From Escherichia phage ECO111 5-P, in the sequence record OR844765: a stretch of 64,000 bases of DNA, one strand, 5' to 3'. A program made the position numbers and the translations under genes. This document shows positions 33,986 through 35,233 of this stretch, one piece after another (positions within the stretch are counted from its first letter, which is position 1; every line of letters starts with the position of its first letter). Below the pieces are notes generated by a model. That model saw only the letters and a program-made list of their open reading frames with translations. It was not told the DNA's origin and made no database searches.

Positions 33986-34567
33986 ATGACATGTCAATCT
34001 GAACTTCAAGAACGTGAATACCTAACAAATCTGATTGATAGCAAATTCACCCGCCAAGAACAAAACATTCTCTGGGCTTGCACCGATTCTAAGGAAGACC
34101 CGGATTTCCACTATGAATTAGACCATCTTGTTCGTAAGCATATGACTTCTACAGTACCAGTAGAACTCTACCGTGGTGTAACTCCAGAAGAAGTAGAACG
34201 TCTTTCCCTTCTTTCTGTTGGATGCCATTGGTCTCCTGGACGAGTAACATCATTCACAACTGATTTCAGTACAGCTCGTCAATTCTCTGGGAGTTGGGAA
34301 TATCAGACGTACACTATTCTTAGTCTCAGGAATGCTCCATTCATTTTTGATTACTACCAAAACATGATTAACATTGTACTCGCCGGAAAGAACCCTAAGC
34401 ATGTTATGGAAGAAAAGCGTGTTGACGTCCTAGATATGATTGAATCTGAACAAGAGTACATGGTCTCAGGTATCTCTAGATTTGAGATTGTGGAAATTGA
34501 AGACTTAGAATATGACCCTTTATCTCGATTATACAAAATCATTCATTTGAAAATGTTGAATTTTTAG
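33986..34567 (+). CDS. modA: Mono-ADP-ribosyltransferase, ModA/ModB family (paralog 1)
   Basis: 193 aa; R-S-E class pattern: YRG, SFTTDFS, E-Q-E (ESEQEYM); paralogous to the next gene; modA versus modB assignment is by order only. Confidence 0.55.
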   Translation: MTCQSELQEREYLTNLIDSKFTRQEQNILWACTDSKEDPDFHYELDHLVRKHMTSTVPVELYRGVTPEEVERLSLLSVGCHWSPGRVTSFTTDFSTARQFSGSWEYQTYTILSLRNAPFIFDYYQNMINIVLAGKNPKHVMEEKRVDVLDMIESEQEYMVSGISRFEIVEIEDLEYDPLSRLYKIIHLKMLNF

Positions 34568-34568
34568 T

Positions 34569-34596
34569 GTACAAACTCTTCCGATGATGATACTAT
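34569..34596 (+). promoter_or_regulatory. T4-type early promoter
   Basis: TGTACA 34569-34574; TACTAT 34591-34596; 16-bp spacer. Confidence 0.45.
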
Positions 34597-34624
34597 ACCT
34601 TTATCAACCACAGGAGAAACCTAA

Positions 34625-35233
34625 ATGTTTATGCCGTATAACGAGTGTGAAATTGAAGAAATGGTTCGTCGTGCTCAAAACCCCGAATATCAAGATGTAT
34701 TGCAGTACGAAATTGATAGTCAATTCAACGATAATGAACAAAGCATCCTTTGGCAGTGTATGGAAAACAAGCCAGACTGTATTCAACAGGAGTTAAGTTC
34801 AATCGTTCGTAGAAATTGGACGTCTTCTGTTCCTGAGACAATGTATCGTGGAATCTCTAAGAAAACTATGGCCACACTTGATGATAAAGGCATTGGTAGT
34901 ATTATTAAATTTGACAGAGTAATGAGCTTCAGCCCAGTGTTCGGTGTAGCACGTAACTTTGCTTCGTATAATTTTTACGGAACATTTAATATGTTCTGCA
35001 TCAAAGATGCGCCATTTGCTTTCAACTTCCGTGAACATATGCTTAACATGATTCTGGCTGCGCCATCTTGTGAGTTCAATGGAGCTTTTCCTGAAGCGAC
35101 AAGACGGTCTAATGCTAGACTTATATCCGACGAATGTGAATTTATGCTCCCTATAGGGACTACACTGCGTGTAGATTCTATTATTCAAGATGGACGTTAT
35201 ACAATCTGGAATCTGTCTATTGTCAGTTACTGA
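34625..35233 (+). CDS. modB: Mono-ADP-ribosyltransferase, ModA/ModB family (paralog 2)
   Basis: 202 aa; YRG, SFSPVFG, E-C-E (DECEFM); shares an LW.C...EL...VRR...TS.VP...YRG...APF.FN scaffold with the upstream paralog. Confidence 0.55.
   Translation: MFMPYNECEIEEMVRRAQNPEYQDVLQYEIDSQFNDNEQSILWQCMENKPDCIQQELSSIVRRNWTSSVPETMYRGISKKTMATLDDKGIGSIIKFDRVMSFSPVFGVARNFASYNFYGTFNMFCIKDAPFAFNFREHMLNMILAAPSCEFNGAFPEATRRSNARLISDECEFMLPIGTTLRVDSIIQDGRYTIWNLSIVSY

Follow-up and report, generated by a model that had tools for sequence, protein, structure and literature searches.

Two adjacent genes in the genome of Escherichia phage ECO111 5-P (OR844765), here designated ORF1 and ORF2, resemble the ADP-ribosyltransferase genes modA and modB of phage T4, and raise the question of whether each copy can be equated with one of the T4 enzymes and whether the targets described for T4 can be carried over to it. 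We addressed this question by following up an initial annotation, made from the sequence letters of a 64,000-nucleotide stretch of this genome (hereafter the window), in which two adjacent ORFs of 193 and 202 aa had been described. These lengths and the corresponding coordinates proved exact (Table 1), with a 57-nt spacer between the genes. The same annotation had proposed a paralogous pair, and in a BLASTP comparison both proteins shared 33% identity across 147 residues (E 4e-27); judged by this alignment, they are clear paralogs.

Translation signals were found for both genes. A GGAGG motif lies 6 nt 5' of the ORF1 ATG, and ORF2 opens with two in-frame ATGs (MFMPYNE), the second being the one from which the ModA protein of phage RB69 is annotated (200 aa). 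An AGGAG motif at 34612-34616 stands 8 nt from the first ORF2 ATG versus 14 nt from the second, the first ATG being the better spaced. An antisense ORF of 159 aa (34799-35278, minus strand), for which no PHROG match was obtained, was discarded as spurious.

Table 1. Coordinates of the two mod genes, their catalytic codons, neighbouring genes and early-promoter-like sites in the window.
Feature	Position	Strand	Remarks
Mrh/ModA.3-like gene	33124-33588	+	Pfam T4_MRH, E 8e-38
Two small conserved ORFs	33581-33769; 33751-33930	+	Upstream of ORF1, modA.2-like
Early-promoter-like site 5' of ORF1	33930-33958	+	GTTTAC, 17 nt spacer ending TGt, TATGAT; A-rich stretch before; motif match only
ORF1	33986-34567	+	193 aa; upstream Mod-family ADP-ribosyltransferase, equivalent of RB69 ModB
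ORF1 catalytic codons	R63 34172-34174; S89 34250-34252; E155 34448-34450; E157 34454-34456	+	
Early-promoter-like site in the ORF1-ORF2 spacer	34567-34596	+	GTGTAC, 18 nt spacer ending TGa, TACTAT; motif match only
ORF2	34625-35233	+	202 aa; downstream Mod-family ADP-ribosyltransferase, equivalent of RB69 ModA
ORF2 catalytic codons	R75 34847-34849; S101 34925-34927; E170 35132-35134; E172 35138-35140	+	
Early-promoter-like site 5' of srd	35308-35336	+	GTGTAC, 17 nt spacer ending TGa, TATTAT; motif match only
srd	35386-36132	+	PHROG 1400 Srd, E 1e-99
dda.1	36135-36446 (in block 35386-37756)	+	Pfam Phage_Y01A
dda helicase	36443-37756	+	Dda SH3 domain, E 2.5e-49
Early-promoter motif sites, whole window	3834, 26818, 27252, 27823, 28564, 32449, 33930, 34567, 35308, 39984, 49990, 50499, 53069, 53658, 55567	+	

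The window displays 98.8% nucleotide identity to several E. coli phages across 4.8 kb, 97.4-98.0% across 24 kb, and 96% to Mosigvirus mar005p1 (96-98% to Mosigvirus genomes overall), and its close relative APCEc01 is classified in the species Mosigvirus mar005p1. By these identities the source phage is a Mosigvirus of the RB69 group. Tequatrovirus was considered as its genus and rejected, since identity to T4 reaches only ~73% in the srd-dda segment, against the 96-98% found with Mosigvirus genomes; across the mod genes, no nucleotide match to T4 was detectable. That genus is the label of Shigella phage JK45 (MK962757), yet JK45 shares 97.6% identity with the window in the mod-dda region, and its genus label looks wrong on this comparison.

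In the RB69 record (NC_004928) the pair is annotated as modB (upstream) and modA (downstream), with the gene order and spacing found in the window. ORF1 is identical to RB69 ModB (NP_861709) at 191 of 193 residues (99%), and ORF2 to RB69 ModA (NP_861708) at 187 of 200 (94%), with 12 of the 13 amino-acid differences falling within the N-terminal 65 residues. Further, tblastn searches recovered ORF1 at an identity of at least 95% in 131 phage records and ORF2 at an identity of at least 90% in 152, most of which label these genes ADP-ribosylase or ModA/ModB. As judged from homology and gene order, the pair corresponds to the known, already annotated modB (ORF1) and modA (ORF2) of RB69 type.

Membership in the Mod family was evident for both proteins, which matched PHROG 832 ("RNA polymerase ADP-ribosylase") with E-values of 4e-38 (ORF1) and 1e-37 (ORF2). 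In BLASTP comparisons with the T4 enzymes (sequences from NC_000866), ORF1 matched ModB at E 2e-27 and ModA at 5e-10, and ORF2 at 1e-32 and 3e-21, respectively. The precomputed Pfam assignment PF26816 is present on all homologs found; a local search of Pfam-A and NCBIfam returned no family for either ORF. The YRG, S-x-S/T and E-x-E motifs (EQE in the first protein, ECE in the second) listed in the initial annotation were all located, as Y62-R63-G64, S89-F-T91 and E155-Q-E157 in ORF1, and as Y74-R75-G76, S101-F-S103 and E170-C-E172 in ORF2. We carried out the alignment with T4 ModA and ModB that had been suggested as a check, and the catalytic residues coincide throughout: the Arg (ORF1 R63, ORF2 R75, T4 ModB R73, T4 ModA R72), the Ser (S89, S101, S99 and S96, in the same order), the first Glu of E-x-E (E155, E170, E171 and E163) and the second (E157, E172, E173 and E165). 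Misalignment of Arg or Glu with known active sites, which had been named as the sign that would speak against the assignment, was looked for and is absent from this alignment. Furthermore, the Arg, the Gly, the first Ser of S-x-S/T, the Phe and both Glu are invariant in an alignment of 35 family sequences. As to the importance of these residues in T4, the R73A substitution in ModB is reported to cause loss of activity (PMC10468400), E173 of ModB is reported as essential in a preprint (bioRxiv 10.1101/2025.07.11.664405), and E165A in ModA is described as abolishing activity in vivo (PMC11404850).

The fold prediction, likewise suggested as a check, agreed with this picture. AlphaFold2 models (mean pLDDT 89.2 for ORF1 and 93.7 for ORF2) place the catalytic Arg on a strand (E60-64 in ORF1, E72-76 in ORF2), the S-x-S/T segment on the next strand (E88-91 and E100-103, respectively), and E-x-E at a helix-to-strand junction. 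The predicted folds of both proteins match solved R-S-E ADP-ribosyltransferases; for ORF1, the Foldseek matches were Certhrax, CDTa, iota Ia, C3, HopU1 and VIP2 (E ~1e-5), and comparison with predicted phage ModB/ModA structures gave TM scores of 0.8-0.92, the value of 0.92 being to a ModB. On these models, both proteins are predicted to adopt the ADP-ribosyltransferase fold. At the sequence level, single-sequence searches against PDB chains returned nucleophosmin and Cas9 alone (E > 0.01, taken as chance), and the family profile against PDB sequences gave a weak match to XopAI at the E-x-E strand (E 0.13). One might suppose, from the low identity to the T4 enzymes and the lack of a local Pfam or NCBIfam match, and from nothing further, that one of the two proteins has lost catalysis and is a pseudo-enzyme, or that the motifs resemble those of the family by chance. 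Against this stand the invariance of R, G, S and the two Glu in both lineages, the family E-values of ~1e-38 and the confident ADP-ribosyltransferase-fold models, which effectively refute the supposition; we give it next to no credence.

A difference between the catalytic dyads of the two copies had also been proposed in the initial annotation, as a hint of divergent substrate use. This part did not hold: both Glu residues of E-x-E are invariant, and the middle residue alone differs, being Q in ORF1 and C in ORF2. In a set of 20 Mod proteins, this position is occupied by Q, C, D, L or R, and its variation does not follow the paralog lineages, as the upstream copy of Dhakavirus, the nearest relative of ORF1 (61% identity), carries ECE, the same as ORF2, and the downstream Dhakavirus copy carries EDE. 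From these comparisons, the variation at the middle residue is ordinary, and constitutes no signal of divergent substrate use.

The genomic context was compared with T4, RB69 and eleven other Straboviridae loci. The gene order (mrh-like, two small ORFs, ORF1, ORF2, srd, dda.1, dda; all on the same strand) agrees with that of T4 and RB69, and the upstream block (33124-33930) matches PHROGs 1234, 1647 and 5790. Regarding the modA.2-like small ORFs (33581-33930), many GenBank relatives carry the mistaken annotation [quoted passage not shown], which is a gene-name collision with the bacterial modA. Neither tRNA genes nor Rfam families were detected in the window.

The whole window was scanned for the early-promoter motif of T-even phages, in which GTTTAC or GTGTAC is followed by a spacer of 16-19 nt with TGn at its end and then by TAnnnT; this gave 15 occurrences on the plus strand and none on the minus strand. 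The site 5' of ORF1 scored 10/12 in a consensus scan, with an extended -10, and the -35 element of the site in the ORF1-ORF2 spacer overlaps the ORF1 stop codon. The 15:0 strand bias argues that the sites 5' of ORF1, ORF2 and srd are probably real early promoters, and fits what would be an early region transcribed from left to right. Toward the right end of the window (56000-64000), the GC skew goes negative and the GC content rises up to ~0.39-0.41; this suggests that opposite-strand genes begin near that end.

The homology, the synteny, the conservation of the catalytic residues and the predicted fold agree with the view of the initial annotation that these are ModA/ModB-like mono-ADP-ribosyltransferases of the R-S-E class. 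We consider it very probable that the pair represents modB (ORF1) and modA (ORF2) of a Mosigvirus of the RB69 group, predicted to encode small, single-domain, arginine-directed enzymes of this class. Following what is described for the family, each gene would be transcribed from its own early promoter by the host RNA polymerase soon after infection; NAD+ would be bound through the beta-1 Arg (R63 in ORF1, R75 in ORF2) together with the Ser-x-Ser/Thr strand. Activation of the ribose-nicotinamide bond would fall to the second Glu of E-x-E (E157 and E172, respectively), and arginines of host proteins would receive the ADP-ribose on their side chains. [quoted passage not shown] Our search of the literature found no biochemical data for RB69-type Mod enzymes; the enzyme activity, the early timing and, above all, the assignment of each copy to its targets are points that we infer only, by extension from T4.

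How far this analogy reaches depends on the relationship of the two copies to the T4 enzymes, for which separate targets have been described. T4 ModA modifies the two alpha subunits of RNA polymerase at Arg265 by ADP-ribosylation. T4 ModB (P39423) is specific for Arg and ADP-ribosylates S1, EF-Tu and trigger factor; with NAD-capped RNA as donor, it RNAylates S1 and L2 as well (PMC10468400). The statement in the initial annotation that ModB attaches NAD-capped RNA to proteins is correct. ORF1 shares 38% BLASTP identity with T4 ModB (90 bits; 31% over the full-length alignment) and 27% with T4 ModA (43 bits; 23%), and ORF2 shares 30% with T4 ModB (103 bits; 31%) and 31% with T4 ModA (74 bits; 30%). 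By raw BLASTP score, both ORF1 and ORF2 are nearer to T4 ModB than to T4 ModA. Net charge and pI were also examined, as a basic, RNA-binding character might point to an RNAylating copy; with pI values of 4.5-5.9, every Mod protein is acidic, and these values do not discriminate between them.

The number of mod genes at the locus varies within Straboviridae. Two are present in Tequatrovirus, Mosigvirus, Dhakavirus and Gaprivervirus, and a single one in Gelderlandvirus, Karamvirus, Winklervirus, Kagamiyamavirus, Jiaodavirus and Krischvirus. This distribution is one of the observations that would favour an origin of the Mosigvirus/Dhakavirus pair, with both copies active, in a duplication separate from that of T4 ModA and ModB, or through recombinational replacement, in which case the targets would be divided otherwise and the labels would be positional. 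Accordingly with such an origin, the single-copy Mod of phage STML-198 (Gelderlandvirus) shares 45% identity with ORF1 and 42% with ORF2, and is nearer to each of them than either is to a T4 enzyme. In a neighbour-joining tree of 58 sequences, both window clades fall among the single-copy Mods of Gelderlandvirus-like phages, apart from T4 ModA and ModB; however, bootstrap values at the deep nodes are below 40%, and, given the long branches leading to the T4 proteins, a long-branch artefact is an equally likely source of this placement. In a tree of 18 sequences, in turn, T4 ModA joins the ORF2 clade (36% bootstrap) and T4 ModB is left unplaced (5% at the relevant node). Profile scores are divided as well: T4 ModB reaches 161 bits with the single-copy profile, followed by 122 with that of the ORF2 clade and 88 with that of the ORF1 clade, and T4 ModA scores 95 bits on the ORF2 clade, 81 on the single-copy profile and 31 on the ORF1 clade, the ORF1-clade values being depressed by a profile built from only four sequences. 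Regarding gene arrangement, the T4 genes overlap by 4 nt and those of the window are separated by their spacer and a promoter-like site, a difference that speaks for separate origins, and the slot next to srd is common to ORF2 and T4 ModA, which speaks against them. Weighing these observations, we regard a separate history of the Mosigvirus/Dhakavirus pair as a possibility to be kept in mind, though a doubtful one. That RB69-type ModB and ModA are not one-to-one orthologs of the T4 enzymes, a single ancestral mod gene having been duplicated separately or replaced, is likewise advanced here tentatively. If they are not, the division of targets into RNA polymerase and translation proteins, together with RNAylation, could be distributed differently between the copies or be absent. 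What can be stated is that, given full-length identities of 23-31% to the T4 enzymes and trees that resolve no orthology, the "ModA" and "ModB" labels of RB69-type genes, and hence their targets, come from gene position alone; for the transfer of targets from T4 to these copies, we can only infer by analogy.

Among related phages, the two genes differ in their stability. Approximately 22 of ~153 related Mosigvirus genomes lack most of ORF1 and keep ORF2: PHB12 misses exactly positions 34030-34532 of the window, inside ORF1; and of the segment 33700-34900, 58% is present in S143_2, p000v and phi25-307, split into two pieces, and 63% in ESh27 and phiE142. These losses indicate that ORF1 is naturally dispensable, at least in some settings. 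As for ORF2, 23 of its first 65 codons (window 34631-34825, numbered from the second ATG) differ from those of RB69 ModA, 11 by synonymous and 12 by non-synonymous changes, whereas only 6 of the other 135 differ. The same contrast holds in comparisons of ORF2 with RB69, mar005p1 and PHB12, with 23-24 of the 65 N-terminal codons differing (about half of them by synonymous changes) versus 6-16 of the 135 beyond, and JK45 is identical to ORF2 across the 65-codon block. This pattern looks like a recombinant allele block restricted to the N-terminal helical region of ORF2.

A further case of variation at this locus was observed in phage VR26 (Gaprivervirus), in which the product of the upstream mod gene (1851-2408 of the compared segment) shares ~30% identity with every other Mod, carries ELE in place of EQE and reaches only 98 bits with the profile of the family; the downstream Mod of VR26 falls normally within the ORF2 clade. 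From these sequence comparisons, the upstream mod slot seems to evolve, or to be replaced, much faster than the downstream slot.

A gene as dispensable as ORF1 could have a strain-specific role, for example against host defence, and such variability bears on the idea that the main substrates of one or both enzymes are non-canonical, for instance proteins with which the host defends itself against phages, rather than RNA polymerase or the translation apparatus. Phage ADP-ribosyltransferases are described as fast-evolving conflict proteins, one of which is reported to inactivate CRISPR (PMC9503650; PMC11383003), and divergence between genera is far greater in the mod genes than in the genes around them, with no nucleotide match to T4 across mod versus ~73% in srd-dda; the variable presence of ORF1 and the mosaic N-terminal block of ORF2 point in the same direction. 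Against it, the characterised members of the family act on RNA polymerase and translation proteins, and we consider such non-canonical main substrates improbable.

The preferred reading, that of RB69-type modB and modA encoding ADP-ribosyltransferases, has been weighed against the low identity to T4, the bootstrap values below 40%, the proximity of T4 ModB to the single-copy Mods, the losses of ORF1 and the lack of a local Pfam or NCBIfam match. As such, the pair re-identifies genes annotated in RB69 since NC_004928 and present in ~150 sequenced Mosigviruses, and in this respect matters little. Its value lies in a caution: functional knowledge of the family, including modification of alpha Arg265, modification of S1, EF-Tu and trigger factor, and RNAylation, comes entirely from the T4 enzymes, and with 27-38% local BLASTP identity, the low full-length identity and no resolved orthology, database labels and product notes have been transferred by position. 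Should natural ModB variants be sought as RNAylation tools, the RB69-type proteins would need direct testing.

In comparison with known systems, the R-S-E bacterial toxins (Tre1, Vis, HopU1, C3, iota Ia/CDTa, VIP2 and Certhrax) share 10-19% sequence identity with Mod proteins, which, unlike these toxins, possess their own N-terminal helical region of ~55-65 residues and lack a delivery or binding domain as well as an immunity partner. Among the phage enzymes, T4 ModB belongs to the same family, with the same predicted fold, and ORF1 occupies its upstream slot in the mrh-to-dda block; T4 ModA is a member of the same family, and ORF2 is likewise located directly upstream of srd.
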